Source: Gammaproteobacteria bacterium
Lineage (GTDB): Bacteria; Pseudomonadota; Gammaproteobacteria; GCA-001735895
Reading direction: 5' to 3'
NCBI GenBank assembly: GCA_050298595.1
Contig: JBNKUM010000067.1
Location: 2,976 to 66,975, forward strand
DNA: 64,000 bases
Positions 31,766 through 61,154 of this stretch are shown piece after piece. The notes below the pieces were generated by a model. It was not told the origin of the DNA, did not search any database, and saw only the letters and a program-made list of their open reading frames with translations. Position numbers and translations under genes: made by a program. Position 1 is the first letter of the stretch, and each line of letters opens with the position of its first letter.

Positions 31766-34588
31766 TTATTCAGCCTTATTTAGTGCTCTTAATATAGCAG
31801 GGTAATCAAACTTACTGGCGAGCTGGCTGAGTGCCCTGTGTAACGCCGGGTCAATCGCCTCGGTGCGCTGGATCACTGCCTCAATGCTCTCGGGCTCCAG
31901 ACTTTCCAGTACCTCAATAAGCTCACTACGTAACACTTCTGGTAACTTTTCCAGCATCTGTGGCGTTAATACTACATGCTCATCTTGCGCCTTTGACGCA
32001 GTACTTCCGTACAGATATTTAACGCCCAGGTGTTTTGATATCACATCGTAGATTAGCGTCGCTCTGTATGGTTTGCTCACGTAATCGTCCATACCGATTT
32101 TTAGAATTTCATTGCGCTCCTCTTCAAAGGCCGAGGCGGTCACCGCGACAATCTTTACCTCTTTGCCGTCAGGCAATTCCCGGATACGTCGTGTTGCCTG
32201 CATGCCATCCATCACCGGCATATGTATATCCATCCAGATTAAATGTGGATGCCAGCTCTGAAACAGTTGTACACCCTGCTCACCATTTTCCGCCAGCTTT
32301 ATCTGGAAACCAACACTCTCCATAATTTCAGAAAGAAGGAGTTGATTGTCGCTCTGGTCTTCGACGATCAGGATACGGTATTCGGGTTGTCCCGGCGCAA
32401 GGCTAGTCACAACCCCCCTGCCAATCTGATCCGGTTTGCTGATATCCTGTTCCAGTGCTTCCTGCAAGATCAGTTCTATGCTGAATACCGTGCCTTTATC
32501 AATCTCGCTTTGCAGGCTGATACTGCCACCCATCATTTGCACGAACTGGCGCGTAATAGCCAGCCCGAGTCCCGTGCCCTTACTGCTATCCTTTTCACCC
32601 ACCTGTACGAAGGGGTCGAAGATAAGTTGTTGATCTTCAGGGCTGATACCTATGCCTGTATCCTCAACCTCGATCAGCAGATGAGATATTCTGTTTTGCT
32701 TTGTGGCCAGACGCAGAGTCACGCCCCCCTGCTGGGTAGCTCTGATGGCATTCCCTATCAGATTGATCAGAATCTGGCGCAGGCGCGACTCGTCGCCTAC
32801 GATGTAACGAGGGAACTGCGATGACTGGTCGACATGTAATTGCAGATCCTTATTTTCCGCGCGTATGCGCATCATATCGATAACATCTCGTAGCATACCG
32901 CCCAGATCAAAAGGCTCATTCTCCAGTTGTACCCGCCCGGCTTCTATCTTGGCCATTTCCAACACATCGTTGATCAGCGTTAGCAGGTATTCGCCACTAC
33001 GATTAATAATATTATTATTGTGCTGTAATCTTTCAGGCAGTGATGGATCCTGGTTCATCAGGTTGGAAAACCCGAGGATAGCGTTCAATGGGGTACGCAG
33101 TTCGTGGCTCATGTTGGCAAGGAAAGTACTCTTGGCTCGGTTGGCAACTTCGGCCTTTTCTTTGGCCGCCTGTAACTCCTGAGTGCGTTCGTCAACGCGT
33201 TGCTCCAGTGTTTCAAACGATTGCCGCAGTTGCCTGATCATGGCATTGAAGGCGGCGGCCAGTTGCCCTACTTCATCACTGGCTTTAAGGTCAATCTCGA
33301 TCAGCTTATCCGAGACTACAGGCGTATCTTTCGCTGTGGAACTATTAATCTGGGTGTTCAGACCGATGCGTGAAACGCTTTCCGTTAAGGCCACAATCGG
33401 TTTGACCAGACGATCTAACAGTATATAGCCCAATATCCAGACCACGATCAAAACCAGAGTAGCCAGGCCAATGAGTGCAGTAACGGTTTCTCGTATCTTC
33501 TGGGAGGCGCTCGCCCCTGATTGCGTAAACCCGATAATCAGCCGGGCTTTATCGCCATAGTGCAACAGGGTCAGGGCCTGGTAATAGGTTTCATCATCCA
33601 CGCTCAGAATCCTTTGTTGCATCGGTTGTTCAGGTGTCGCCTGACTCTGTTGCACCCATTGCACCAGATCTTCCGGCTTCATCTTCATTTTGACGATTTC
33701 GATTTGATGCATCCCATCTAACGAATACAGTGCTGGTAATAAACCACTTTTCTGCGCAATGCCTTGCAAAAATGCCTGGTCAAAGACCTTCTTGAATACA
33801 AAGGCACCAATGAGAACTGGTTTGATTTGGTCGGGATTTTTCTGGTTAAGCGCTTCCTGAGAAGCGATGACTGGATTGTTGACCACAAATCCTTCGGAGG
33901 AACCCAGGGTAATATTGTTTCGCATTACCGTTCGAGTAATTGCCTGTACCGGGACAACGATTTGCAATACCAACGCCTGCTGTTCAGAAAAATAAAAGGA
34001 AATCATGGGTTGCCTGGGTAATGTAATTTGAGATGAGATTAATGGAGGAGGGGTACCCAGCGGCCATATTGGCCAGTTATTGAACTTCATCTCTCCGCTC
34101 TGATCTGGATCAGTTTTAATCAGCCTCTGCTGCCCCTCCCGAAACACACTGATGCCAGCCTCAGTAGTAGTCACGAAATGACTTAACTCATTGCCCGTGT
34201 AAACGGCGGCGCTGGAAAATCCGGCCGTACGCAGAATAATCTGAAACCGATTCAGTGAAATGGTTTTATCGAACAGGAATCCGCGTTCATTCTTTGATGC
34301 TAGCTCAGGATAGTTCTTAAATTGCTGTGTTTTTGCATACAGCGTAGCCAGATCACTCAAGTTATCGATTCCGGTAACATTTTTTTCGGCAACCCTGCGC
34401 AGATCAGTTATCGTTTCCTGCAACTCGTACTGTAACAGGTCGGTCTGTTTGGTCAGGCTGCTAAACGCCTCTCGCTCGCTTTGTTGCGTGGTCAGGTAGA
34501 TGGCGAGTGCTACATTAAGCCCAGCGATAATGATCAGGGCCGTGCTAAACGCCAGCAGCAATTTCGTCTTGATACCCGATATGTTCAC
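31766..34588 (-). CDS. Hybrid sensor histidine kinase (HK2), paralogue of HK1
   Basis: 940 aa with the same architecture as HK1. [20 protein letters not shown]; [13 protein letters not shown]; receiver [11 protein letters not shown]...[10 protein letters not shown]. Confidence 0.9.
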
Positions 34589-36121: not shown

Positions 36122-37927
36122 TTATTTCTGGAAATTTTCGGGTGAAATCCCCTTGCTGCACATCTCCAGAATTTTGTCTCCTGATACGGACTTGCTGTAA
36201 TAAAACCCTTGCGCAACATCACAATCCACGGATTTCAGAAATTCCTGCTGAGTACCCATCTCAACGCCTTCAGCAACCACTTTCAGATTCAGGCTATGGG
36301 CCATGGCAATAATGGCCAACGGAATCGCATTGCCATGCTCAGTACCAATGTTTTTTATAAAGGACTTATCGATCTTCAGTTCGTTGACGGGGAAATCCTG
36401 CAAATAGGCTAGACTTGAATATCCTGTTCCGAAATCATCAACTGAAAGCCCAACACCTAAATCATGCAGCTTGTTTAGAATATCCAGATTAGTTTTACTG
36501 TACTGCATCAGCAGACTTTCGGTTATCTCCAGTCCAAGCCTGGAGGGCGGTATCTGAAACTCTTCAATAGTACGATGCACGGTATCTTCAAAGCCATCTG
36601 AGTGTAATTGCGGCACTGAGATATTTACCGAGATAGATAAATCATCATAACCAGCATCATGCCATCGTCTTAATTCTGCACAACTCTCACGTAAGCCAAA
36701 CGCTCCAAGTTCCTTGATCAGTCCATTCGCTTCTGCTACCGGGATAAATTCTGCCGGGGATATCAACGTTCCATTGGCGAGACGCCATCGCATTAGCGCT
36801 TCAGCACCTATGATTTTATTTGTAGTTAAATCAATCTGTGGTTGATACTCCATAAACAGTTCCTGATTATGAATCGCATCTATGAGCAAATTGGAAAGGT
36901 TAAGATGATCCTGCACAGTCCTGTTTAATTCGCTGGTATACAGTTTGATTTCGGCTCGACCAGATTGCTTGGCGTGATACATGGCGGTATCGGCATTGCT
37001 CAACAGGGTATCCACATCCGTGCCGTCCTCCGGGTAAACAGCTATACCAATGCTAGCACCTATATGAAAATTCAAATCATTCATTTGAAATGGTATTCGA
37101 AGAGAATCAAATATTTTTCTGGCCATAGCCATGATATCTTGATTTTTCTGATGCAATGGTAGACAAATTACAAACTCATCTCCACCCAGCCTGGCAACAA
37201 TATCTTCATCACGTATGGCACTTTTAAGTCTATCGGCAACTTTACTTAGCAGCTTGTCGCCAGCATGATGTCCTAACGAATCGTTAATAATTTTAAATTG
37301 ATCCAGATCGAGAAACATCAATGCAATATTCTCATCACATCGTTTCGCTCGAGTGATTAGCTGGTTAAGTCGCTCCACCAACAATATACGATTGGGCATG
37401 TCGGTTAACGAATCATGAGTAGCGATATACCTGACCTGTTCTTCAACTCGCTTTCGCTCCTCAATTTCATGGCGTAATAAAACGTTAGCATCAACTAGCT
37501 CCTGAGTGCGCTCGCTAATACGTATATCAAGCTCTTTGCGTAAACCCGAAAGCTCGAGATGAGTATTGATTCGAGCCATTACTTCCGCAAAATTGATCGG
37601 TTTGGTAATGTAATCGACAGCACCCACGGCAAAACCATGCACCATATCGGATGTTTCTGTAGCAGCGCTTAAGAATATGATAGGGATATCTATCAGATCC
37701 TGTTCTAATCTGATGCGACGACAGGTCTCATAGCCATCAATACCCGGCATCATAATATCAAGCAGAATAAGGTCTGGCTTAGGGAGATTGGCCAGTTTTA
37801 GGCGTCGAAGTGCCTGTTCTCCACTTTGCGCGACTGCTATCTTGAGATTCTGCCCCTCAAGACCGTCAACTAGCAACTTCAGATTGGCAGGATTATCGTC
37901 AACTAGCAGGATAATTTTACTTACCAT
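36122..37927 (-). CDS. Response regulator with GGDEF and EAL domains (c-di-GMP turnover)
   Basis: 601 aa. Receiver ILLVDDNPANL...LLDIMMPGIDG. Intact GGDEF (RLGGDEFVI). Intact EAL domain (GAEALMRW, DDFGTGYSSL). Confidence 0.9.
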   Translation of the reverse strand: MVSKIILLVDDNPANLKLLVDGLEGQNLKIAVAQSGEQALRRLKLANLPKPDLILLDIMMPGIDGYETCRRIRLEQDLIDIPIIFLSAATETSDMVHGFAVGAVDYITKPINFAEVMARINTHLELSGLRKELDIRISERTQELVDANVLLRHEIEERKRVEEQVRYIATHDSLTDMPNRILLVERLNQLITRAKRCDENIALMFLDLDQFKIINDSLGHHAGDKLLSKVADRLKSAIRDEDIVARLGGDEFVICLPLHQKNQDIMAMARKIFDSLRIPFQMNDLNFHIGASIGIAVYPEDGTDVDTLLSNADTAMYHAKQSGRAEIKLYTSELNRTVQDHLNLSNLLIDAIHNQELFMEYQPQIDLTTNKIIGAEALMRWRLANGTLISPAEFIPVAEANGLIKELGAFGLRESCAELRRWHDAGYDDLSISVNISVPQLHSDGFEDTVHRTIEEFQIPPSRLGLEITESLLMQYSKTNLDILNKLHDLGVGLSVDDFGTGYSSLAYLQDFPVNELKIDKSFIKNIGTEHGNAIPLAIIAMAHSLNLKVVAEGVEMGTQQEFLKSVDCDVAQGFYYSKSVSGDKILEMCSKGISPENFQK

Positions 37928-44935: not shown

Positions 44936-47001
44936 TTATAGGTTGTTCCGTAACCCTTCAATAGCCAATTTAAACTCATTAATGTCAGTAACGGGTTCAC
45001 GGCAGATCATGCCTTCGCAAAGATATGCTGATACCTGATCATTAATCGGTTTCTTATCATGGAATATGTCTGAAACTTCTGCCTGTTCGTCTACTGGAAA
45101 ACACAGAACATCAGGCAGGTAATATTGGTTAACTATCTGCTGCCATTCCTTTATTGCCTTGTGCTCACCACGAAGAATGACAATGGTAACAGAGTGAAGA
45201 TGGATATCGACCGCATTAAGCATAGAGGCATAGGCTATTGGTTGTTTGGCCAGCTGTAAAGAAGCTGCGCTTATGGTTTTTTCTGCGACATCAAGATAAC
45301 GGGGTTCAGTGCACAGATAACCCAGATAGTATAAAGCCTGAGCAGCAATCGCGTTGCCAGAAGGCATGGCATCATCATTAAATGTCTGGCTGCGCAGAAT
45401 CAGGTTTTCATGGTCATTGCGGGTGAAATAAAACCACCACTTTTCTTATTGGCAAAATCATCGATTAGGCTATCTGCCAGTTCAACACACCATGTAAATA
45501 TATCTTTATCCCATTTTGCCTGTAGCGCTTCGATACAGCTGAGCAACAAGTAGGCGTAATCATCCAGATAGGCATTCAGATGAGCCTTGCCATCTTTCCA
45601 GGTTGCAAGCAATCGGCCATCATGCCAGATATATTGGCGCACAAAGTCGAGTGCGCGGAATGCAGATTTTGCATAGTCAGGACGATTGAGTATACGTGCG
45701 GCAATCAACATGCCACGTATCATCAGCGCATTCCATGAGGTTAGTACCTTGTCATCGGTGCCAGGTTTGATACGCCGATTACGGTGTTCAAACAATTGAT
45801 GACGCGAGCTTTCCAGTGATTCAATTATTTCAACTTCTTTCAGGCCGAATTTTTGACTGAGTTGTGTGTAGGTACGGTAGATGTGCGGATACCAGCTACC
45901 CTCAAAATTCGCTGGGCGATCCAGTCCGTAGGTTTTTATAAAAATATCAAACTCAAATTCGGATAGCAGGTGCTTAACCTCCTCTACCTGCCAGATATAA
46001 TATTTACCTTCCTCACCTTCAGAATCTGCATCCTGTGAGGAATAGTAACCACCCGCAGGTGATTGCATTTCACGCATAAGCCAGTCAGCGGTTAGAGATA
46101 TTGCCCGTTCATAATAGTGGTTTCGTCGTAGTTGATTAGCCCAGACATATATCGGCATCAACTGTCCATTGTCATAAAGCATTTTTTCAAAGTGCGGTAT
46201 CATCCATTGATCGTCAGTAGAGTATCGACAGAAGCCGCCGCCAATCTGATCGAATAAACCACCCTGAGCCATTTTTTCTGCTGTAAATAAACCGGCCTCA
46301 AGTAAGTTAGCATAATCACTCCCATAGAGTGAAAACTGACGCAGACAGCGTTCAACAAAACAGGCATGTGGGAACTTGGGTCTAGGCGTAAAGCCGCCAT
46401 CATCCGCATCGAATTGCTCCAGCAATTGTTGGGACATTACTGCAAAAATATTATCGCTTAACTCGGCCTGATGCTTCGCTGGTTGATTGATATGTTGCAG
46501 TTGTTCAAGTAACGACCGGTTTTGAAATTCGATATCGTTGCGTTTTGTATTATAGGCATTGTGCACAGCCTGAATAATGGACCTGAAAGATTGCATGCCA
46601 TAACGTTCCTGCGGTGGAAAGTAGGTACCCGCAAGAAAAGGCGTCTGGTCATCTGGCATCAGGAACAGGGTTAGTGGCCAGCCACCGCCGCGATGGGTTA
46701 ATACTTGATGCGCCAGTTGATAGATCTTGTCCAGATCCGGGCGTTCTTCACGATCAACCTTGATATTGATGAAATACTCATTCATCAATGCTGCTGTTTG
46801 TTCATCTTCGAAAGATTCATGCGCCATCACATGGCACCAGTGGCAGGCGGAATAACCAATGGATAATAGTACAGGCTTATCCTGTTCTAGAGCTAGTCTT
46901 AAGGCTTCATCTCCCCAGGGGTGCCAGTCCACAGGATTGTGTTTGTGCTGTAAAAGATAAGGACTGGTTTCATCGGCCAGTCGGTTTTCATGCGTATTCA
47001 T
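44936..47001 (-). pseudogene. Thioredoxin-domain / N-acylglucosamine-2-epimerase-fold protein (YyaL/DUF255 type) split by a -1 frameshift
   Basis: ORFs 45400..47001 (533 aa; [11 protein letters not shown] thioredoxin-like motif) and 44936..45367 are consecutive parts of one protein. Reading ggtggttttatttcaccc with one extra T restores [30 protein letters not shown]. The break lies at an A4/T4 run near 45431-45434. Confidence 0.75.
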
Positions 47002-48420: not shown

Positions 48421-48834
48421 ATGAATCTATTCGCGTATGGGACATTGATGGATGAGGCCATTATGCACAATGTCTGTGGTGAGCGGTTTCAATCACGAGT
48501 GGCTACTTTATCAGGCTATATGCGCAAAAAACTATGCGGTGAGGTTTATCCAGGGATTATTAGGCAGGCCGATTCAAAGGTTAAAGGGCGGGTATATCTT
48601 GATGTGACCGCGCAGGCTTTGCAGTATCTAGACCAGTTTGAAGGTTCGTTTTATCAAAGACAGCTCGTGTCAGCTGTTTTTGATGATGGCGCAAGCATGG
48701 AGGTTGAAACTTATGTGCTAACCAAAAGCTGTGCCAAACTGCTATCTGCGGAAGACTGGAGCCTGGAAGAGTTTCTAAACCGTGATAAGCCACTATTTGT
48801 GGATAAATATGGCGGTTATGAAAAGCTGGTTTAA
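48421..48834 (+). CDS. Gamma-glutamylcyclotransferase (AIG2/GGACT-like) family protein
   Basis: 137 aa with the N-terminal family signature LFAYGTLM and a YPGI motif. Confidence 0.7.
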   Translation: MNLFAYGTLMDEAIMHNVCGERFQSRVATLSGYMRKKLCGEVYPGIIRQADSKVKGRVYLDVTAQALQYLDQFEGSFYQRQLVSAVFDDGASMEVETYVLTKSCAKLLSAEDWSLEEFLNRDKPLFVDKYGGYEKLV

Positions 48835-49050
48835 ACACAAAAACAAGCACCTTTAGGCTGAAGGCTAAACTGACCAGGCTATTTATCTTAGTGTAATAAA
48901 GTCCTTACAAATAACTTGCTAAAATCAGAATTTATCCTAGAATTCGCGCCACTTTAATATCCATCGAGGATTTATGTTATTTCGCTAACCGTGCGCTAAT
49001 TCAAAACAGCGCCGGAACTATTTTTTCTGACGTTATTTTGAGGCTCTTTA

Positions 49051-49353
49051 GTGGAACACTTAACTTCTCAGGCACTGGATCGTGTGATCCAGATGTTGAT
49101 TCATCTCTCAATTCCTGCCATCGCCTACTCAGCTGATGATGAATTTGAGAATCATTTCATGACACACAATGGTATCGAATATGCTGGTATTCCTATCAGT
49201 GTGCCTGGCTTACCGGAACACAACTACGCGGCTTTCGATGCGTTTACTTGTACAGATGGCTGTCCAGAGACAGTGCTGCCCGTATTAAAACCACCTTTCT
49301 TCCCTCGGAGCATGGAAGTCACCGAGCAGCCACGTGGTATTATCCGAGATTAA
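49051..49353 (+). CDS. Hypothetical protein (coding status uncertain)
   Basis: 100-codon ORF with a GTG start, immediately upstream of speE. No recognisable motif and no obvious RBS. Confidence 0.25.
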
Positions 49354-49370
49354 AATTGGAGAATAGACCT

Positions 49371-50225
49371 ATGAAAGAATTCGAAGAAACTTTGTACGAT
49401 GCACTGGCACAGACCTTTCGTATCGATAAGCTGTATTTTGAACATAAAACCGATCATCAGCATCTGATGATTTTCCACAATGCTTTTCTTGGTCGTGTGA
49501 TGACCCTGGACGGAGTAGTTCAAACTACGGAAAAAGATGAGTTTTTCTATCATGAAATGCTGACACATGTGCCTGTTCTGGCGCATGGTAATGTAAAAAA
49601 GGTATTGATTATTGGTGGTGGTGATGGCGGCATGCTGCGAGAAGTGTTAAAGCATGCATCTGTGGAGCAGGTTACTATGGTCGAGATTGATGACAAAGTA
49701 ATCGAGATGGCGAAACAGTATTTACCCAACCACTCAGCCGGTGCATTTGACGATGCGCGAGCTAACATTGTGATTGCCGACGGTATAGATTTTGTGCGGA
49801 ATACTGACGAATGTTTTGATGTCATTATCTCTGACAGCACCGACCCTGTGGGTCCTGGTGAAGTACTGTTTACGGATAATTTTTATTCCGCCTGTCAGAA
49901 AATCCTGAATTCAGGTGGCGTTATGGTGACACAAAATGGCGTTCCTTTTTTTCAAATGGATGAATTAATTAATACGCAGAAGCGTATGGGCGCACAATTT
50001 AAGGATCAAACCTTTTATAGCGCCGCAGTACCTACCTATTACGGTGGGATTATGACATTCGCCTGGGGTAGCGATGATGAAACACTGAGACAGCAGGATA
50101 TCAGTGTTCTTCAACAGCGGTTTATTGATAGCGGTATTAAAACCCGTTACTACACACCGCAAATTCATCAGGCATCTTTTGCTTTACCAGCATATGTACT
50201 GGATAAACTGGAGAAAAACAGTTAG
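49371..50225 (+). CDS. speE: Spermidine synthase (aminopropyltransferase)
   Basis: ATG 49371 preceded by ggag. Motifs [35 protein letters not shown]. The 5' part of ORF 49248.. is only an upstream extension. Confidence 0.9.
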
Positions 50226-51367
50226 TGAACAAACGCTCTGTCAGATATGGTGCCAGTCCCGAAGAGAATGAATATTTCCAGGGGCTAGTGTCAAAGTATG
50301 GTTCTCCTTTATTGGTCATCAGTCGTAGTAAACTGATTCAACAGTATCAGAGTCTTAAAAACTACCTGCCCGGCGTGTCGCTATATTACGCCATCAAGGC
50401 TTTTCCTCACCCTGATGTGATTCGAATTCTGGCTGAACAGGGGTGTAATTTTGATGTGGCTTCAGAAGGCGAGATTGAGTTACTTAAGCCACAGCAAATC
50501 AGTGGTCGCAAAACTATCCATACTCATCCTATTAAGAAGGAAGCTCATATCAAGGCAGCATTGCGTGGCGGCTCAACCACTTTTGTAGTGGATAATATTG
50601 ATGAACTGAAAAAAATGATTCCATTTCGACAGCGAGTCGGTGTACTACTACGAGTTAGTTTTCGCAGTGATACCGCGAGTGTCGATCTATCGCGCAAGTT
50701 TGGTTGTAGCCCCGCCCAGGTCAGGGATCTGGTATTAGAGGCACAACAGTATGATATTCATATACGTGGACTGTCATTCCATGTAGGCTCACAGAGCCTG
50801 TCTTCAAATACGCATGTCGATGCGATTCAAAAATGTGCACAACTCATTGAAGAGATTAACGAAGATATTCCGAACCCGATGAATGTACTGGATATAGGCG
50901 GAGGTTTTCCAGTGGATTATGCTCAGGAAAATCCAGATCTGGAAGGATTCTTTAAGCCGATTCAACAGGCACTGTCTGAACTGCCAGATTATCTGGACAT
51001 TATCGCTGAGCCCGGACGTTATCTGGTGGCACCTGCAGTAACCGGCATCAGCAGTGTCACCGGTATCGCCAGGCGAGGGGAGTATATGTGGTATTACCTG
51101 GACGACGGTGTATATGGTTCTTATAGTGGGCAATTGTTTGACCATGTTCTGTACCCCCTGCAAATTCCGAATGATGCCGAACCACGCACTCTATCAATTC
51201 TATCTGGACCAACCTGCGACAGCATCGATATCATCTCCGAAGATATCATGCTGCCCGACCTGCGCGAAGGCGAACTGGTTATAGGCCACATGATGGGCGC
51301 CTATTCGGCAGCCACATCGACGCATTTTAATTCATTGTCGGGTGCCAGGATTATTCTTGAGGACTAG
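50225..51367 (+). CDS. PLP-dependent ornithine/lysine decarboxylase (alanine-racemase-fold Orn/DAP/Arg decarboxylase family)
   Basis: 380 aa. YAIKAF (PLP-lysine), HVGSQ, GGGFP, EPGRYLV, GPTCDSID. GTG start overlaps the speE stop by 1 nt. Confidence 0.85.
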   Translation: MNKRSVRYGASPEENEYFQGLVSKYGSPLLVISRSKLIQQYQSLKNYLPGVSLYYAIKAFPHPDVIRILAEQGCNFDVASEGEIELLKPQQISGRKTIHTHPIKKEAHIKAALRGGSTTFVVDNIDELKKMIPFRQRVGVLLRVSFRSDTASVDLSRKFGCSPAQVRDLVLEAQQYDIHIRGLSFHVGSQSLSSNTHVDAIQKCAQLIEEINEDIPNPMNVLDIGGGFPVDYAQENPDLEGFFKPIQQALSELPDYLDIIAEPGRYLVAPAVTGISSVTGIARRGEYMWYYLDDGVYGSYSGQLFDHVLYPLQIPNDAEPRTLSILSGPTCDSIDIISEDIMLPDLREGELVIGHMMGAYSAATSTHFNSLSGARIILED

Positions 51368-51624: not shown

Positions 51625-53700
51625 ATGAATAGCTGGAAGTTATGCATTTTGCTCTGTGCATCCGCCTTTTCTTTATCGGCTGTGGCAGGTAGTGATGACA
51701 GGCTCGATCACTTTCTTTCCTTAAGTTTTGAAGATCTGGTGAATCTGGAAACCAGTATAGCCACAGCATCTCGTCAAACCATTTCTCGAGCACCAGCAGT
51801 TGTTTCAGTAATAACAGCAGATGATATCAAGGCAACTGGAGCGGTAAATCTGGTTGACGCTTTACGTACAGTGCCGGGTCTTCACATCAGGACAGACCCC
51901 TTTGGCAACCGCCCCCTCATCCACTTCCGTGGTTCAAAAGCGGTAAATACTTTGTTAATGGTCAACGGAAACCCAATGAAAGATCTTATGTGGGTATTTG
52001 GCATATTCTGGAAAGGATTACCCGCCAGTATAATTGATCGCATAGAGATTATCCGAGGACCTGGTTCAGCACTATTTGGTGCCGATGCAGCTGCCGGTGT
52101 TATTAATGTGATCACTAAAACAGCAGGCAAGACCGAAGGTACAGAAGCAGGCTTACGTATCGGCAGCTTTAACAGCAAAACCAGCTGGCTACAGCATGGT
52201 GGTAACCTTAATGGCTTCGATATTGGGCTCACGGCCAATATTCATGATACGGATGGATATAGTCCGTTTATCTCAAGCGACAACCAAACCCTCTATGATC
52301 AGGCGCAGACAAGCAATGTTTCGCTTGCACCATCCAATGTGCATTATGGTTGGCATGGCGAAGATCTTCGGCTCTCTATTGGCAAAGGAAACTGGCGATT
52401 ACTGGCGGATTATATGGGTCATAACGATATTCAAACCGGCATGACTGGAACTGCTGTGATCGATCCGCTTACTGTGGCCAGTGATAGCAGATATAACATT
52501 GATGTACTGTATAGCAATGATAACCTGTATGAAGACTGGTTGATCAATGCTGATTTTGGATATGAGCATTTGCAGTATGATTCCGGTGAAGGGTTTCAGG
52601 AACGGCCACCAGGCTTTGTTGATTCCAGTGGCGTTTACCCGAACGGTCTTATCAACCAGATGGAATCGGCTGAGCGTAGTCTGTCTTTTGAAGCCAGCGG
52701 TTTGTATAGTGGTTTTGAAAACCATGTACTTCGCGTCGGTGCGGGTTATTCGGTAAAAGATTTATACTCAGTCGTGCAACGGGTGAACTTTGGACTGGGA
52801 CCCGATGGCAATCAGTTGCCCGCTGGTGGACCGCTGGTTGATGTATCGGATACGCCGTACGCATTCGCCCCTGAAAAAAAACGTGAAATTGCTCATCTGT
52901 TTATTCAGGATATCTGGACTATTACTGACGACTGGGAGCTGACTGCTGGTGCGCGCTACGACGACTATTCTGATTTTGGCGATACGCTGAATCCACGTCT
53001 GGCTCTGGTATGGCAAACTACCGATAAACTAACTAGTAAGTTCATGTATGGAAAAGCATTCCGGGCGCCTTCTTTCCAGCAGCTTTTTTCTGAAACCTCT
53101 CGCGCCCTGCCTAACGACCAGCTTGATGCAGAAGAGTTTGATACGACTGAACTATCACTTTCATATGCCGCAACACAAAAACTTCAACTATCGATGAATA
53201 TGTTCCACCTTAATCAGGAAAATATTATTCAGCGTGTGGCAGTCAGCGGTCTAACCAAGAATCAATATAATAACATTGGAGATCACTGGACCAGGGGCTT
53301 CGAACTCGAAATGAAGTGGCAGACACTGCCGGATCTTAGAATGTCGGCAAACTATGCAGTTCAGCAGCAGAAAGATGATGAGTTTCGATATTTTCTGGTT
53401 CCAGAACAGTCTGCCTACCTGCGTGCTGACTGGTCATTTCACCCCAAATGGAACTGGGATTTTCAGGCAAACTGGATTGGTGAGCGGGTACGCCCATCTA
53501 CTGACACCCGCCCCTCACTTGCCGCTTATACGATTAGCGATACAACGCTTCGTTACACCGATTCAAACTCCTGGTCATTTGCCGCTTCGGTAAGAAATCT
53601 TTTTGACGAGGAGGCAAAAGAATATAGTTCGGGTTCTCTTGAGGATGACCTGCCATTACCAGAACGTAGTTTTTATGTTGAGATGCAATATAAATTTTAA
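51625..53700 (+). CDS. TonB-dependent outer-membrane receptor
   Basis: 691 aa with a signal peptide. Plug motifs (VSVITADDIKATGAVNLVDALRTVPGL, IEIIRGPGSALFG). The barrel ends in a terminal aromatic residue (EMQYKF). Confidence 0.9.
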   Translation: MNSWKLCILLCASAFSLSAVAGSDDRLDHFLSLSFEDLVNLETSIATASRQTISRAPAVVSVITADDIKATGAVNLVDALRTVPGLHIRTDPFGNRPLIHFRGSKAVNTLLMVNGNPMKDLMWVFGIFWKGLPASIIDRIEIIRGPGSALFGADAAAGVINVITKTAGKTEGTEAGLRIGSFNSKTSWLQHGGNLNGFDIGLTANIHDTDGYSPFISSDNQTLYDQAQTSNVSLAPSNVHYGWHGEDLRLSIGKGNWRLLADYMGHNDIQTGMTGTAVIDPLTVASDSRYNIDVLYSNDNLYEDWLINADFGYEHLQYDSGEGFQERPPGFVDSSGVYPNGLINQMESAERSLSFEASGLYSGFENHVLRVGAGYSVKDLYSVVQRVNFGLGPDGNQLPAGGPLVDVSDTPYAFAPEKKREIAHLFIQDIWTITDDWELTAGARYDDYSDFGDTLNPRLALVWQTTDKLTSKFMYGKAFRAPSFQQLFSETSRALPNDQLDAEEFDTTELSLSYAATQKLQLSMNMFHLNQENIIQRVAVSGLTKNQYNNIGDHWTRGFELEMKWQTLPDLRMSANYAVQQQKDDEFRYFLVPEQSAYLRADWSFHPKWNWDFQANWIGERVRPSTDTRPSLAAYTISDTTLRYTDSNSWSFAASVRNLFDEEAKEYSSGSLEDDLPLPERSFYVEMQYKF

Positions 53701-53761
53701 GGATTGATATCATCAGGATGAAAAGACAAAAAAGAATGGCAAGGCATCTGGCCAACCGGGA

Positions 53762-54334
53762 ATGGAGTATCTGTTGAAGCCTATGATAAGGACATGGATG
53801 CTGTGGCTTCTACTATGCCTGTTGTCAGGCATGAAAAATATTGCTGTTGCTGAACAATACCCCGCTGAGGTTCATTTATTTAAAGCTGCTTACATCTACA
53901 ATTTTGGCAAACTGGTGAGTTGGCCAGAGGGAACCTGGCAATCTCAGGAAAGCCCCTTCACTCTATGTACTCTTGGTCAGGATGATGTTATCAATGCGCT
54001 AAATAAATTAGGTGGAAGGAAAATTCAAGGCCACCGTGTCACTATTCAATCGTTTAAAAATAATTTCCCTACAGGTCATTGTCAGATACTGTATATCGCT
54101 AAGAGCAGCGCCCACAACTATCCAGATAAACAGGATAAAGCCTCCCAGCAGGCACTATTAACGGTTAGTGAAATTCCTGGCTTTATAGATCAGGGTGGCA
54201 TTATCGAGCTCTATCGAGAAGATAATCGAACCCGCTTTAAGATTAATCTTGGCAAAGCTCGTGAACTGGGTCTCGAGATCAGTTCTCGATTGTTGACCCT
54301 GGCAACATCTGTTGAGGATAAAATAAAACAATGA
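53762..54334 (+). CDS. YfiR-family (DUF4154) periplasmic protein
   Basis: 190 aa with a signal sequence. Family pattern [16 protein letters not shown]...FTLCTLG...CQILYIAKS. Confidence 0.75.
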
Positions 54335-56232
54335 TCCTCAGAAATGCCAAAATACAGCAAAAGCTGGAAGCTATCATGCTCATCACCACGGCAGCTGTAT
54401 TAGTGCCGTGTATCCTTGCATTCATGTTTCTTGAGGCCTCATCGGCACGTGATGAGGCCATCATACGTTTAGAATCTCTGGCAACTGTTTTAGCGGTCAA
54501 CAGTAGTGCCGCAATTGCTTTCAGGGATGAGAAGGCAGCATCCGAAGTTATCAACAGCCTTTCTTCTCAGGGTGATATCATCTGGTCAGGCATTCGACTG
54601 ATGAATGGGGAGCTGTTTATCGTGACTAAATCCGGAAGTTTCGAGAAAACCCGTATCCCAAATATCTGGCTTTCAATGTTCAAATCTTTACTGGGTAATA
54701 TCGAGGTAAAAAAAGCGATTGTATTCGATGGGTCCAAGCTTGGTGATTTCATCATTATTGGTGATATGAGTCGGCTGTATCATCATCTCATTCAGCAAAT
54801 ATACGTCGGCCTGGGCATGTTTGTTATCGCCATGCTAATAGCTCTGGTTCTGGCTGATCGGCTGCAACTGGTAGTTTCTGTGCCGGTAAAGAGATTGCTA
54901 GAAACCATGGAAAAAGTCATAGCAGGAAAAGGTTTTGGCTTTAGAGCTGAACGAGTCAGTAATGACGAACTTGGTATTTTGGTCGATGGGTTCAACGAGA
55001 TGCTGCAAAAGATTCAATCCTATGATGAAGAACTGAATAGTCAGCAGAAAAATCTTGAGCTGCAGGTTATAGAGAGAACCCAGCAGCTACAGGAGTCAAA
55101 GATACAGGCTGAATCAGCCAATAAGGCAAAAAGTCTTTTTCTTGCCACCATGAGTCATGAGATACGAACGCCTTTGAATGGTGTGGTGGGGATGATTCAG
55201 GTGTTACGCGAAACGGCGCTGGATAAAGAGCAGCAAAAGTATATCGAGACTCTGGATAGCTCAAGTAAGAGTCTGATGATGCTGATTGATGACCTGCTTG
55301 ATCTTTCAAAAATCGAGTCGGGGAAACTGATATTGGACATTGAACCTTTCTCAAGTAGACAGTGGATAGGCGATATTAGAAATCTGGTCAGCCCTCTTTT
55401 TGACGGTACTCAGGTCGAATTCGACATTAAAGTAAGCAATAACTTGCCGGCCTATCTGCAAGGAGATGCTGCCCGACTGCTTCAGATCGTAGTGAATCTT
55501 GTGACTAATGCGGCCAAATTTACCCGATTTGGAAGGGTGACATTAGATATAGGCGGCCAGCCAGCAAAACAGGGTTATTATGATTTGAGGCTATCCGTTG
55601 AAGATACCGGAATTGGCATACAGGAAGATAAGCTGGATCTCATCTTCAAAGCTTTTCAACAATTAGAAGTGGACCAGATCACCAATAAAGGGGTCGGCCT
55701 TGGGCTTGCGATATGCAAGAGGTTGGCAGATATCATGCAAGGAAGCCTGCGCGTTACCTCTCAACCTGAAGAGGGAAGTTGCTTTACCTTAGAGGTGACT
55801 CTGGCTGAAGCTGAAGTAGGCAGTGATAGCGTCAATAGTGACAATATGCTGGTCATAAACCGGAACCTTTCGGTTCTATTGGTTGATGATGACAATATAA
55901 ATCGTTTTGTTGCACGGTCATTACTGGAAAATGTCGGAATAAAAATCACTGAAGCTCAGAATGGTCAAATTGCCTATGACAAAGTCAAACAGCAGGCATT
56001 TGACCTGATTTTAATGGATATTCAAATGCCTGTAGTGGATGGCATAACAGCGACAAAAATGATTCGAGAATCCGAGGGTGAGGCTCATCGAGTTCCTATC
56101 ATCGGTATAAGTGCCAGCGTCATGAGTGATGAAAAAATTCGCTATCTTGATTCGGGTATGGATGCTGTAGTTGAGAAACCATTGGTGGTCGAGAAGCTGT
56201 TTAAAACTATTCAATCCCTGCTGTATAAGTAG
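54331..56232 (+). CDS. Hybrid histidine kinase with small periplasmic (CHASE8-like) sensor, HAMP, HisKA-HATPase and receiver
   Basis: 633 aa. N-terminus [23 protein letters not shown]...[24 protein letters not shown] resembles the CHASE8-type sensor found in YfiN-like proteins (needs an HMM check). [16 protein letters not shown]; receiver [11 protein letters not shown]...[15 protein letters not shown] overlap with the YfiR-like gene. Confidence 0.85.
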
Positions 56233-56236
56233 TCGT

Positions 56237-56256
56237 CCCTGAAAAAGTTTTCAGGG
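56237..56256 (+). terminator. Stem-loop after the kinase gene
   Basis: ccctgaaa-aagt-tttcaggg: 8-bp stem beginning 5 nt after the stop. No T-tract follows. Confidence 0.4.
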
Positions 56257-56280
56257 CGCGTTCCATAGTGTTGTGAATAA

Positions 56281-56745: not shown

Positions 56746-58236
56746 ATGAAAGATACGAATCTACCTCCATCTGTCCTCCACAATCGGCTCGATAGCCATG
56801 GCAAAGCTATAGCCTGGGACACTCAGTCATTTCATGACGCACTGATCGCTGCTGGTGCCAACCACTCGTTGCGGACTTCGGAAAGAGAGCTGGAGAATCT
56901 ACTCCCTGCTGCCGTATCGGTGGACAATCTGATCGATGAGACAGGTCGTCAAGCTCTGAAGCTGGTCGTCAGGCAACTGCTGGATGATGTTAAACGCAAG
57001 CGCCACCAGTCCTTGATCCTGCAGCTTGTTGCCTTGCCTGAATCCGGATATCTGTTGCTGGCAAACGATGGTCGTTCTGGCAGGAGATGGATTTTTATTA
57101 ATGAGCTGGATCATCAGACGCTGATAGATGCACTGGACTTATTGGCCGCCGGAAAAACTACATTGTTCTGGCCACATGGCGAGGTGACAAAATATTGCAG
57201 AGATCTGGTGCGGGTACAGGGCAGCATCAAACTCGATTTAGCATCAGGAACTGCTGCATCTCTGGCTACCGTAATATACCGTGAGCCCCTTACGCTACAG
57301 ACCCAGACTCGCCAGAGTGCCGAGTTGATCGAGAAGGCACAACTCTCGCACCTGGACAGGTTAGAGGCCGAGAGCATCTATATCATCCGGGAGGTTGTTG
57401 CCCAGGCGGAAAACCCTGTCATGCTCTACTCAATCGGCAAAGACTCATCTGTGATGTTGCATCTGGCCAAAAAGGCGTTCTACCCCAGCCCGCCTCCATT
57501 CCCGTTGATGCATGTAGATACGCGCTGGAAATTCACCGCTATGTATGACTTTCGGGATCGCATGGCAGAAGAAGTAGGTATGGATCTGATTGTTCACACC
57601 AATCCTGAAGGCATAGAAAAAAATATCAACCCCTACGACCATGGCAGTGCGCTACACACCGACGTGATGAAAACTCAGGGCCTGAAACAGGCACTGGACA
57701 AATACAAATTTGATGCTGCCCTTGGTGGGGCCAGAAGAGACGAGGAAAAAAGCAGAGCGAAGGAAAGGGTCTTCTCGTTCAGATCCACAGCCCATCGCTG
57801 GGACCCGAAGAACCAGAGGCCAGAGCTGTGGAATCTATACAACGGGTACAAGAAAAAGGATGAAAGCATCCGCGTGTTTCCTTTGTCCAACTGGACAGAG
57901 CTGGATATCTGGCAATACATATATCGAGAGAGCATACCCATCGTTCCTCTTTATTTCGCGGCAGAACGGCCAGTTGTTATGCAGGATGGCATGCTGGTGC
58001 TGGTGGACGATGACAGAATGCACCTGTTTGAAGATGACAAGATTGAAATCCGCAAGGTACGTTTCCGTACACTGGGTTGCTATCCGCTGACCGGTGCCGT
58101 CGAATCAGAGGCGGACAATCTCTCCTCTATCGTTCTTGAACTGCTACAGAGCAGAACCAGCGAACGAGAGGGTCGAGCCATAGATAGTGATTCATCTGCA
58201 TCCATGGAAAAGAAAAAACAGGAGGGCTACTTCTGA
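56746..58236 (+). CDS. cysD: Sulfate adenylyltransferase subunit 2 (CysD) with ~190-aa N-terminal in-frame extension
   Basis: Residues ~196-496 are collinear with canonical ~305-aa CysD ([66 protein letters not shown]). The frame stays open upstream to ATG 56746. An internal TTG at 57325 would give a canonical-length protein. Confidence 0.85.
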
Positions 58237-60104
58237 TGAACGAGCTTATTAAACAGGTCGATGACTACATAGAAACTCAGTCAAAACTTGACCTTCTCAG
58301 ATTCATCACTTGCGGTAGCGTGGATGACGGCAAGAGCACACTTATCGGCAGGATGCTGTATGATGCTCAGTTACTCTTTGAAGATCAGGTTAGCGCTCTT
58401 CAGAGCGATTCCAGAAAGATGGGAACCCAGGGGGGCGATATAGACTTCGCGTTGCTGGTCGATGGACTGGGAGCCGAACGGGAACAGGGAATTACCATTG
58501 ATGTAGCCTACCGCTACTTCAATACCGACAGACGAAAGTTTATCGTGGCGGATACACCGGGGTACGAACAGTACACCCGTAACATGGTAACCGGGGCCTC
58601 TACTGCAGACGTCGCTGTGATACTTGTGGATGCATCGCAGGGGATTCTTAGTCAGACCCGCAGGCACTCATTCATCGCTTCGCTGCTGGGTATCAAGCAT
58701 GTGGTCCTTGCGATCAACAAAATGGATATAGTCGACTATAAAGAAACGATATTCGATCAAATCCATGAAGCCTACCTGAATTTTGCCGAGCTACTGAACT
58801 TTGAGGCTATCACAGCCATTCCGCTATCGGCACTGAAGGGCGACAACGTTATTCAGCGCTCCAAAATGACAGACTGGTATCACGGCCCAACCTTGCTGGG
58901 TTTCCTGGAAACCGTTGATGTTCGAAAATCCCAGCTAGACTATCCATTCCGCTACCCGGTTCAGTGGGTTAATCGTCCAAATTCTGAATTCCGTGGTTTT
59001 TCTGGTACTGTCGTCGCTGGCAGTATTGCGCGCGGCGAAGCAGTCAGAGTGCTGCCTTCTGGAGAAGTCGCCAATGTGAAGGAAATCGTACTGTATCAGG
59101 ATCAGCTCAGCCGCTGTGTTGCTGATCAGTCCGTTACCATTACCCTGGACAGGGAGATCGATATTTCACGCGGAGACATACTCGTTACCGCTGATGACCC
59201 CTGTGAAGTATCCGACCAGTTTGAGGTTACCCTCGTCTGGATGGATCAGGAAGAAGGTTTTGCCGGTCGCTCCTACCTGATGAAAATTGGCACCCAGCTG
59301 GTTAATGCCACAATCACAGACATCAAATACAAGTACGACATCAATACACACGACCGGCTCTCCTCCAAGACATTGCACCTCAATGAAATTGGTCGCGCCA
59401 CCATAAGTCTCGACAAAGCAGTACCTTTTGAGGCCTACGAAAAATGCAGGCAAATGGGAGCCTTCGTACTAATTGACCGCTACCGTTTCGCCACGGTATC
59501 AGCCGGGATGATTTCTTTCGCCCTGCGTCGCGCGAGTAATGTACACACCCAGGCCCTCACTGTTGACAGAGCAGCACGGGAACGGCTGAATAATCACAGC
59601 GGCAAGGTCATCTGGTTTACAGGGCTGAGCGGATCAGGAAAGTCGACGCTGGCTAACGCCATGGAACAACAGCTGTACAAACGGGGTATTCGCACCTACA
59701 TACTGGATGGTGACAATGTCCGACAGGGACTCAACAAGGATCTAGGCTTTACCGATGCAGACAGAGTCGAAAATATCCGGCGCATTGCCGAGGTGGCCAA
59801 ACTCATGGTTGATGCTGGTCTGGTGGTGATGACCGCCTTCATTTCTCCATTCCGTTCAGAGCGCGACATGGCGCGCTCTCTGTTCGGCGAAGGTGAGTTT
59901 ATAGAGGTGTTTGTCGATACGCCACTGGCGATAGCTGAGGAGCGAGATCCGAAAGGACTGTACAGGAAAGCTCGTCGTGGAGAACTACCCCACTTTACCG
60001 GCATAGACAGCCCTTACGAAGCACCGGAAGCGCCCGAACTTGATTTGAATACAGGAAGCTTATCGATTGACGAATGTGTCGAGAAGTTGCTGAAATTATT
60101 CTGA
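58236..60104 (+). CDS. cysNC: Bifunctional sulfate adenylyltransferase subunit 1 / adenylylsulfate kinase (CysN-CysC fusion, NodQ-like)
   Basis: 622 aa. GTPase part: [28 protein letters not shown]-kinase part: [17 protein letters not shown] overlaps the cysD stop (TGATG). Confidence 0.9.
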
Positions 60105-60109
60105 TGAAT

Positions 60110-60636
60110 AAGTCCTACTACAGAGAAACGCATCTCTAAAGCATGGCAAAAGTACTGTCCTGGTGGGTGACGGCAACGCTCACCAGGGGCCTCATTGCGT
60201 TCTTTATAACCAGTGATTTTATACGGCTCTGACCATCCAGTGATCATGGCAAAGGATACCCTTGAAATGAGGCAGGATGCCGGTTTCATCGGCCTGAGCC
60301 AGTTTGTCTTTAGTCAACTGTTCAAATTGGAATAAACTCGACGATATAGGGATCATCCGTCTTTTTCAGCATCTTGCCCATATACCCTGTTTGAGCTCCT
60401 GAGGGTTTGTCTGATTTCTTGTGTGAGGTCTTTAAACGATTTGGATCACTCGACGGTGGCTTGCTGCTGTTTTTACTGGTCAGTGTTGTGCGGTTTATCA
60501 GCACAGAAACTAACAGCAGCAGAACCTTTAAAGCGGCTCGAACAGAAGATGACAGTCCAAGTTCCTGGTCAATCAGTTGCCGGGCATTATGGAGAGTCTT
60601 TTCAACCTCAATCGAATCTATTTTCAATGGATACAC
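60110..60636 (-). pseudogene. Decayed IS66-family transposase (TnpC) remnant
   Basis: ORF 60322..60636 has the IS66 N-terminal hallmark KNSSKPPSSDPN...KPSGAQTGYMG. Downstream fragments read ADETGILPHFKGILCHDHW and then shift frame. Internal deletions are evident and there is no tnpA/tnpB. Confidence 0.65.
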
Positions 60637-61154
60637 CCGTCCCTTTCAGTACAGGGGTATTCTCGTATGACTTTTCAGGGGCGACTTTTTCTCTTTGTAT
60701 AGCTCTGTGCGCCGTTAAAAAAATGAATTCATGAATGGGGTCACTGTCATGCTGTTAAAGCAATTAAACATTATCAGGTACGACCTGAGTACGCTTTATT
60801 ATACGATTGATAATTCTTGTGAAATTTTCAAAAAACCTATGAAATCCACCCAAGCTTTTTTTATGATTAATTTACGGTGAGTAGTTACACTTAAATTTTA
60901 AATAAGTGTTATAAATCTGTGCATAAATATGGGGCAGAGAGCATTATTCTCTAATGCTGGAATCAATGGCTCTATGCTCCGGACTTTAGCAGTAATCTTT
61001 CACCAGCTCTGAATAATATTAAGCGCGCTCGGTTAGAACTTGATTTTGTCCATGTTTCTATATAAATACACTGTATTGAGTATTTGTATAGAAAGAATTT
61101 GATTATTGAGTAGTATCGTGGCCACAATGTTCCTATTCACTAAGATCTTAAGCT

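Follow-up and report, generated by a model that had tools for sequence, protein, structure and literature searches.

Does a YfiR-like protein that is encoded between a TonB-dependent receptor and a hybrid sensor histidine kinase belong to the YfiBNR system, or do these three genes represent another type of envelope signalling module? This question is raised by the region 51625-56232 of a 64,000-nucleotide stretch of gammaproteobacterial DNA (contig JBNKUM010000067.1; hereafter the window), which is filled by three open reading frames (ORFs) on the + strand (Table 1). The YfiBNR system is the textbook case of periplasmic sequestration governing cyclic di-GMP (c-di-GMP) and persistence, and its input signal is still unclear. 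The window trio is a representative of a real, widespread and uncharacterized module, in which a YfiR/YfiN-sensor core is combined with a TonB-dependent receptor as the outer partner and with a phosphorelay output. The initial annotation had described three co-oriented genes for the receptor, the YfiR-like protein and the hybrid kinase, and the ORFs and their Pfam matches agree exactly with this description. The 16-residue peptide that it quoted corresponds to residues 40-55 of ORF 2, and the ATGA overlap that it reported for the last two genes is present. A 4-nt overlap is also the commonest spacing of these two genes in related loci (20 loci). The receptor and YfiR-like genes are separated by a 61-nt gap. 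In the public annotation of the same species, the YfiR-like gene starts at 53798 and encodes 178 residues; a signal peptide is retained with either start, and the N-terminus resembles a signal peptide in the receptor as well as in the YfiR-like protein. Loci identical to the window trio are found in several GCA_0503 assemblies.

The YfiR-like protein matches Pfam DUF4154 ('YfiR/HmsC-like') at 8.7e-39 (133 bits, cut-off 24.9). Single-sequence searches of the Protein Data Bank with this protein and with the sensor region of the kinase give no match, and a profile is needed: the profile of the YfiR-like protein and its relatives matches the crystal structures of Pseudomonas aeruginosa YfiR at 4e-9. 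When the AlphaFold2 model of the protein (predicted local distance difference test score 85.4) is compared with known structures by Foldseek, the 15 best matches are all YfiR, with target-normalized TM-scores of 0.75-0.80 at about 19% identity, and the next matches are half-size substrate-binding proteins. The DUF4154/YfiR assignment proposed earlier is therefore upheld by the Pfam match, the profile match and the fold comparison. The protein passes the NCBIfam model NF053591 (129.9 bits, cut-off 125), but does not reach the canonical equivalog NF053586 ('regulatory sequestration protein YfiR'; 41 bits, cut-off 85). The family recovered by the YfiR-like profile comprises 7,891 clusters (50% identity) at E<=1e-30 and 28,379 clusters at E<=1e-3. 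Tandem two-domain members of 340-380 residues with two DUF4154 stretches also exist (P0025, P0026, P0027, P0036 and P0062).

The most conserved positions of the YfiR-like protein are K41, A42, A43, N47, F48, W54 and P55, together with a C-terminal set consisting of F159, N162, L171, S174, L177, L178 and A181. These positions map to the edge strand and to three helices, the first one and the last two. On YfiR, the equivalent surface is where YfiB binds and where YfiN is proposed to bind (PMC4655355). F159 corresponds to the 'central' F162 of YfiR. The YfiR pocket formed by L166, I169, V176, P178 and L181, which accommodates F57 or M59 of YfiB (PMC4887326; PMC4655355), is represented by L163, A166, I173, S175 and L178, and residues of this pocket are among the most conserved ones. 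C69 and C107 are near-invariant and align with C71 and C110 of YfiR, while the second disulfide of YfiR (C145-C152) is missing.

The hybrid kinase matches Pfam CHASE8 at 9.9e-9 (35.8 bits, cut-off 27), as well as HisKA, HATPase_c and Response_reg; its HAMP match is under the cut-off (20.6 bits, cut-off 25). From the N-terminus, the protein consists of a first transmembrane segment (~14-34), CHASE8, a second transmembrane segment (~156-178), HAMP, HisKA with H276, HATPase and a receiver domain (REC) with D563. According to the hydropathy profile, the two hydrophobic segments bracket a periplasmic stretch of about 120 residues. The CHASE8 score and this topology agree with the earlier proposal of a small CHASE8-type periplasmic sensor on an inner-membrane hybrid kinase. 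H276, N389/N393, D425/G427/G429 and G454/G456/G458 are near-invariant among relatives and are read as the phospho-acceptor histidine and the N, G1 and G2 boxes. The Pfam scan detects HisKA, HATPase_c and Response_reg instead of a GGDEF output, and gives no Hpt match. The kinase scores under the cut-off of every named hybrid-kinase equivalog (TorS, BarA, ArcB and LuxQ), and its sensor region fails NF053592 (136.5 bits, cut-off 194). The sensor carries AAIAF at the position of the 'AAVVF' motif of YfiN, which has been proposed to bind YfiR (PMC3375315), and F64 and D66 are near-invariant across 65 related sensors. The contact between YfiR and its sensor is very probably retained in the window pair, because AAIAF with a near-invariant F64 on the sensor side is accompanied by F159 and the conserved pocket on the side of the YfiR-like protein.

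Conservation of the gene arrangement was analyzed in two directions. One genome per species was scanned for relatives of the YfiR-like protein, by which at least 583 loci were confirmed. The best 80, which are those most similar to the query, were kept, and their ORFs were called and compared with the three window proteins; this census covers the subfamily of the window protein, not all DUF4154 proteins. A receptor gene is located immediately upstream on the same strand at 56 of the 80 loci and within 7 kb at 67, and a gene for a CHASE8-like sensor is located immediately downstream of the YfiR-like gene at 74. Judged from record titles, the trio is kept over about ten phylum-level lineages, and the loci derive from Gammaproteobacteria, Betaproteobacteria, Acidobacteriota, Nitrospirota, Desulfobacterota, Myxococcota (Myxococcales), Verrucomicrobiota, Bacteroidota, Armatimonadota, Baltobacteraceae and Binataceae. 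When 65 of the downstream sensors are scanned with Pfam, all of them contain CHASE8, 60-61 contain HisKA or HATPase, 42 contain a receiver, 13 contain HPt and three contain GGDEF. In the reverse direction, metagenome contigs were searched with the N-terminal motif region of the receptor, which gave 53 receptors with enough downstream sequence. The receptor gene is directly followed by a YfiR-like gene in 46 of them, and these two genes are followed by a gene for a CHASE8-like sensor in 38 of 39 cases. Among the seven negatives, two are broken ORFs and two more adjoin a cassette or a YfiR-like gene. The linkage between the receptor and the YfiR-like protein holds in both search directions, and the three genes co-occur far above chance from either end. 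With E-values matched to the cut-offs, NF053591 is reached by about 69 of 79 YfiR-like relatives, NF053592 by about 36 of 65 related kinase sensors and NF053590, the receptor model, by about 11 of 56 cassette receptors.

Some loci deviate from the simple arrangement. Receptor/YfiR-like pairs are tandemly duplicated in L113 and L030, and in L046 a pair of neighbouring receptor genes precedes a pair of neighbouring YfiR-like genes; for Thauera, two homologues of YfiR have been reported alongside a single sensor (Malone et al. 2012, PMC3375315). Five Marinobacter loci (L028, L060, L064, L075 and L077), which derive from four genomes and one metagenome-assembled genome, contain the YfiR-like gene and a gene for a short CHASE8 kinase (~485-500 residues) and are receptor-less within 7 kb. 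These cassettes constitute a natural receptor-less comparison group. Cultured carriers of the module include Thalassolituus oleivorans MIL-1 (TOL_0244 and TOL_0243, next to the kinase gene), Desulfogranum mediterraneum DSM 13871 (L033) and Fluviicoccus keumensis DSM 105135 (L019), and Malone et al. (2012) name Geobacter sp. M21 and Opitutus terrae PB90-1.

The receptor contains Pfam Plug at residues 54-159 (1.8e-21) and TonB_dep_Rec_b-barrel at residues 290-659 (6.1e-43). Its signal peptide covers approximately residues 1-21, and its C-terminal end is ...QYKF. Its closest solved relatives are CirA, PfeA and PirA, all of which are distant, and it shares only 18-28% identity with receptors outside its own clade. 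It scores under the cut-off of all NCBIfam receptor models; in the case of NF053590 (157.2 bits, cut-off 645), the best-scoring stretch is the N-terminus and the plug. Between the signal peptide and the TonB box, all cassette receptors have a short extension with the consensus DLxxLSLE[DE]LMN[IV]EVTSVSK, in which the window receptor reads LDHFLSLSFEDLVNLETSIATAS (residues 27-49, the putative TonB box included). L38 occurs in every one of the 56 cassette receptors and represents one of only 11 invariant columns of the whole protein, and S34, L35 and E36 are kept in 44-46 of 56. The mean frequency of the top residue is 0.61 for the extension, 0.64 for the plug and 0.40 for the barrel. Receptors near other cassettes that are encoded in divergent or convergent orientation, or behind the kinase, have the motif as well. 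The EVTSVSK columns align with MVVTASS in the N-terminal segment of CirA, which we take to be its TonB box, and residues 43-49 of the window receptor are assigned as a putative TonB box from this alignment. The LSLEDLMN part has no aligned counterpart in any solved receptor structure. An STN domain is not detected in the window receptor, in which only about 30 residues separate the signal peptide and the plug. The initial annotation did not remark on the extension. The proposal made there, that an event at the outer membrane is relayed through the YfiR-like protein to phosphorylation, is plausible and is better motivated by this motif.

To compare the divergence of the components, Mantel tests were performed on pairwise identities among the 42 sources in which all three proteins are present, the window being one of them. 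The YfiR-like protein co-diverges with the CHASE8 periplasmic domain (rho 0.65, p 0.001) and with the receptor (rho 0.30, p 0.001), and CHASE8 co-diverges with the receptor (rho 0.22, p 0.01). The kinase core does not co-diverge significantly with any of the three (rho 0.07-0.11), although this result is perhaps weakened by alignment problems near inserted PAS domains. According to these results, the three parts that face the periplasm evolve together, whereas the output in the cytoplasm is reshuffled. This pattern is compatible with a physical partnership, most clearly for the YfiR-like protein and CHASE8, with co-inheritance also contributing to the correlations.

The nature of this output is suggested by the neighbouring genes. 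The 115 downstream neighbour ORFs of the cassettes include Response_reg in 40, GGDEF in 16, EAL in six, PilZ in four and Hpt in three, while the OmpA family, to which YfiB belongs, is found in two. The usual output of the cassette is a phosphorelay, which often ends in c-di-GMP enzymes. TonB, ExbB/D, ABC, MFS, FecR and ECF sigma (extracytoplasmic function sigma factor) families do not appear in the 25 most frequent families of neighbours on either side of the cassettes, indicating that the receptor belongs neither to an uptake locus nor to a locus of classical surface signalling. In the window, no response regulator gene adjoins the trio, and the next genes downstream are cysD and cysNC. The nearest candidate partners in the window are a REC-GGDEF-EAL protein (36122-37927, - strand) and three other hybrid kinases. 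Two paralogous hybrid kinases, which consist of about 940 residues and contain HAMP (27287-30100 and 31766-34588, both - strand), lie together with the regulator gene 16-27 kb upstream. The regulator is of the kind that adjoins cassettes in other lineages; nothing ties it to the window kinase.

The window trio resembles YfiBNR (TpbB, HmsCDE) of P. aeruginosa, E. coli and Yersinia in that a gene for a DUF4154/YfiR-fold protein is located directly upstream of a gene for an inner-membrane protein with CHASE8/PAS-like and HAMP domains, and in that a third, outer-membrane component is encoded in the same operon. The AAxxF motif of the sensor, the central Phe, the partner pocket and the first Cys pair are kept as well. 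However, the output domains of the window kinase are HisKA-HATPase-REC, whereas that of YfiN is GGDEF, and the outer partner in the window is a 22-strand TonB-dependent receptor that is encoded first, whereas YfiB is an OmpA/Pal-like lipoprotein that is encoded last. The window protein also differs from YfiR in the second disulfide and in the equivalog score given above. No OmpA-like gene is present among the genes surrounding the trio, to which the Pfam scan for such genes was confined. The window trio is not a canonical YfiBNR system, because it has neither YfiB nor a GGDEF output and because it fails NF053586.

The initial annotation knew of no characterized example of this combination. No paper was found in the literature search that ties YfiR-like proteins to TonB-dependent receptors or describes the trio. 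The novelty is nevertheless overstated, as two earlier sources anticipate it in part. In an in silico analysis, Malone et al. (2012) reported distant pairs of YfiR and YfiN sensors that lack YfiB and have histidine-kinase, hybrid-kinase or HPt outputs (PMC3375315). The lineages of these pairs (Acidobacteria, Geobacter, Opitutus and Desulfobacterium autotrophicum) overlap with those of the present census, but TonB-dependent receptors are mentioned zero times in that paper, and neither the receptor link nor the N-terminal motif is described there. In addition, each of the three genes has a model in NCBIfam release 20, namely NF053590 (TOL_0244 receptor), NF053591 (TOL_0243 YfiR-like protein) and NF053592 ('sensor histidine kinase, YfiR-like protein-associated'), indicating that the curators have noticed the trio. 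The order of the window genes matches that of this TOL_0244/TOL_0243/kinase cassette on a single strand, and the window YfiR-like protein passes its model, but the receptor and the kinase sensor do not pass theirs. The window cassette therefore represents a divergent branch of the same three-gene architecture. No functional study of the NCBIfam trio was found in the literature, and the models are names only. The sole experimental note found is a seven-fold increase of TOL_0244 in the Thalassolituus proteome on n-C28 alkane (PMC6304351). Alcanivorax OmpS was set aside as a signalling relative of TOL_0244, for which a statement of 40% similarity is the only basis (PMC6304351).

The trio shares single features with other envelope signalling systems. 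Like the FecA/FecR/FecI transducers, it has a conserved periplasmic N-terminal element before the TonB box of the receptor and co-encoded inner-membrane signalling partners. However, the window receptor has an extension of only about 16-20 residues in place of STN, neither an anti-sigma nor an ECF sigma factor is involved, and the proposed relay would reach a two-component kinase by way of a soluble protein of the YfiR-like type. In CpxP/CpxA and ExoR/ExoS, a soluble periplasmic protein likewise restrains a sensor kinase until it is titrated or removed, but both of these systems have unrelated folds and lack an outer-membrane receptor as a dedicated partner. The HisKA, HATPase and receiver domains of the window kinase, with H276 and D563, resemble those of the BarA/TorS/ArcB hybrid phosphorelays; a C-terminal HPt domain, which 13 of 65 relatives have, is lacking. 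Caulobacter HmrABC, with an HmrA hybrid kinase containing a LapD-like periplasmic domain, was rejected as a characterized relative, because HmrC is a five-helix membrane protein and is not YfiR-like.

From the domain identities and the linkage, both of which are observed, we infer every interaction of the following scheme. The trio may constitute a three-tier envelope signalling module in which the receptor captures the YfiR-like protein to free the kinase, a tentative reading that we consider the likeliest one, with a probability close to, but short of, an even chance. The first step has good support: the YfiR-like protein would bind the CHASE8 domain through its C-terminal hydrophobic surface, with F159 and the pocket L163/A166/I173/S175/L178, and the AAIAF motif (F64) would provide the contact on the sensor side. 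This binding would keep the kinase in one signalling state, as YfiR does with YfiN, and the YfiR-like protein may act as a repressor or as an activator. For the second step, in which the TonB-dependent receptor would substitute for YfiB as the outer-membrane input, the support is moderate. Binding of a ligand or engagement of TonB would free the LSLEDLMN-type extension and the TonB box into the periplasm, and the freed N-terminal segment would capture the YfiR-like protein by analogy with activated YfiB, whose extended N-terminal loop puts hydrophobic anchors in the pocket of YfiR and undergoes strand pairing with the YfiR edge strand (PMC4655355; PMC4887326). The third step is predicted from the domains. 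The released kinase would autophosphorylate H276 and transfer the phosphate to D563 of its own receiver. From there, the phosphate would reach a response regulator by way of an HPt protein that is encoded by a separate gene. This regulator is a REC-GGDEF protein in many relatives, so that the output would often be c-di-GMP; in the window, the partner is not adjacent. More generally, the cassettes could represent a second widespread class of TonB-dependent cell-surface signalling, in which a short pre-TonB-box extension, instead of STN, reports receptor occupancy to a YfiR-like adaptor, and this adaptor frees a CHASE8 kinase that often feeds REC-GGDEF regulators, in place of an anti-sigma/ECF-sigma pair. 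We regard this generalization, taken as a whole, as possible but rather doubtful. Several points weigh against capture by the receptor. The extension may be a mere flank of the TonB box of one receptor clade that is co-inherited with the operon. The window TonB box is unlike that of the majority (7% identity), and the window receptor and kinase sensor are under the NCBIfam cassette cut-offs. The receptor co-diverges only moderately with the YfiR-like protein, a result that would follow from co-inheritance alone. Finally, 13 of the 80 loci, the five Marinobacter loci included, have no receptor within 7 kb, indicating that the YfiR-like protein and the kinase can work without it.

The conserved linkage could be accounted for in other ways. 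The receptor might only import a ligand that is sensed by the YfiR-like protein or by CHASE8, so that the receptor and the YfiR-like protein never touch, a logic likened to that of LuxP/LuxQ, TorT/TorS and PfeA/PfeS. This explanation is favoured by the YfiR fold, which corresponds to half of a periplasmic substrate-binding protein and is followed by such proteins in the Foldseek list, and by the binding of vitamin B6 and L-tryptophan in the partner pocket of P. aeruginosa YfiR, but the affinities for these ligands are only 35-77 mM (PMC4887326). Tight synteny would be expected in this case too. However, import followed by sensing does not account for the conservation of the periplasm-facing extension in receptors whose ligand-binding barrels have diverged to 18-28% identity, and an inner-membrane transporter is not enriched nearby, although sensing alone strictly needs none. 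Taken together, these points make such a mechanism unlikely.

The YfiR-like protein and the kinase might instead sense another cue, such as the envelope or redox stress proposed for YfiR, with the receptor being co-transcribed or a target rather than the input. Two-component systems often adjoin receptor genes under their control, the redox-sensitive Cys71-Cys110 pair of YfiR has its counterpart in C69 and C107, and the receptor-less pairs of the census are readily understood in this way. This type of receptor is, however, almost never found without a YfiR-like gene (46 of 53), which is a tighter coupling than is usual between a regulator and its target. Its gene is the first of the operon at most loci, and its divergence follows that of the two periplasmic partners rather than that of the kinase core. 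Such a passive role of the receptor is distinctly unlikely. That the genes are adjacent by chance, or by lineage-specific synteny without a functional link, is highly improbable. Some gene order is indeed merely inherited, because the polyamine genes upstream of the trio are syntenic with it only in L005-L008, but the trio itself is kept over about ten phylum-level lineages and is recovered from both ends, so that this explanation is effectively refuted by the two censuses.

Table 1. Positions of the receptor/YfiR-like/kinase genes and of their features in the window
Feature	Position	Strand	Basis and remarks
TonB-dependent receptor gene	51625..53700	+	Pfam Plug and barrel; 691 aa
Conserved N-terminal extension of receptor, residues 27-42 (LDHFLSLSFEDLVNLE)	51703..51750	+	window version of cassette motif DLxxLSLE[DE]LMN[IV]E
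Putative TonB box, residues 43-49 (TSIATAS)	51751..51771	+	alignment to CirA N-terminal segment
YfiR-like periplasmic protein gene	53762..54334	+	DUF4154; 190 aa; alternative annotated start 53798
ATGA overlap (kinase start codon / YfiR-like stop codon)	54331..54334	+	read from sequence
Hybrid sensor histidine kinase gene	54331..56232	+	Pfam CHASE8, HisKA, HATPase_c, Response_reg; 633 aa
CHASE8 periplasmic sensor domain, residues 45-139	54463..54747	+	Pfam CHASE8 35.8 bits
AAIAF, residues 60-64, counterpart of YfiN 'AAVVF'	54508..54522	+	motif defined in PMC3375315
Hairpin directly 3' of kinase stop codon, possible operon end	56234..56260	+	RNAfold -13.2 kcal/mol, no U-tract; weak evidence

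The hairpin that follows the kinase gene is not called by the consensus terminator scan, and the scans for promoters and terminators are uninformative, with counts not above those of shuffled sequence. The best Fur-box match upstream of the receptor gene is 11/19, while 139 positions of the window (both strands) score at least 12. Iron regulation of the receptor gene was therefore dropped, because this match is no better than the window background. The polyamine-type cluster directly upstream of the trio (48421-51367, + strand) consists of a GGACT-family gene, a short AdoMetDC-like ORF, speE and a gene for an Orn/DAP/Arg-family decarboxylase. It was rejected as a functional context, because its synteny with the trio does not extend beyond the closest relatives L005-L008 to L009, L010 or others.

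Other observations concern more distant parts of the window. The gene at 8890-12552 (- strand) encodes a 1220-residue hybrid histidine kinase, in which the N-terminal periplasmic region matches ABC_sub_bind (PF04392) just below the cut-off (25.4 bits, cut-off 25.9) and is followed by three PAS domains. The substrate-binding structures 3LFT and 3LKV, which resemble YfiR, are presumably members of this ABC_sub_bind family. The cysD ORF (56746-58236, + strand) encodes 496 residues, and the CysD models cover only residues 183-496, leaving about 180 N-terminal residues without a family match; a 496-residue cysD gene is called likewise in related assemblies. The Thioredox_DsbH (DUF255) gene at 45400-47001 (- strand) encodes 533 residues and is accompanied by a separate neighbouring ORF of 143 residues in the window, L001 and L004, while L002 and L003 have a single gene for 688 residues; this split may reflect a polymorphism between strains or a frameshift. 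Downstream of cysNC (~60100-61150 in the window), the region is strain-variable. It contains a DUF6444 fragment followed by mqo in the window, L002, L003 and L004, instead of which L001 (16300-20500) has DUF2061, a Y1 transposase, DUF1240 and a type I restriction-modification methylase.

If YfiB is replaced in these cassettes by a ligand-gated and TonB-energized receptor, they would provide a version of the YfiBNR system whose input could be a defined molecule. The module would also connect TonB-dependent receptors to two-component signalling, a kind of link that is so far known mainly for sigma/anti-sigma pairs. The YfiR-like family is common in Acidobacteriota, Nitrospirota, Desulfobacterota and Verrucomicrobiota, groups with almost no characterized signalling pathways, and because this family is large, a tested mechanism would annotate thousands of operons.

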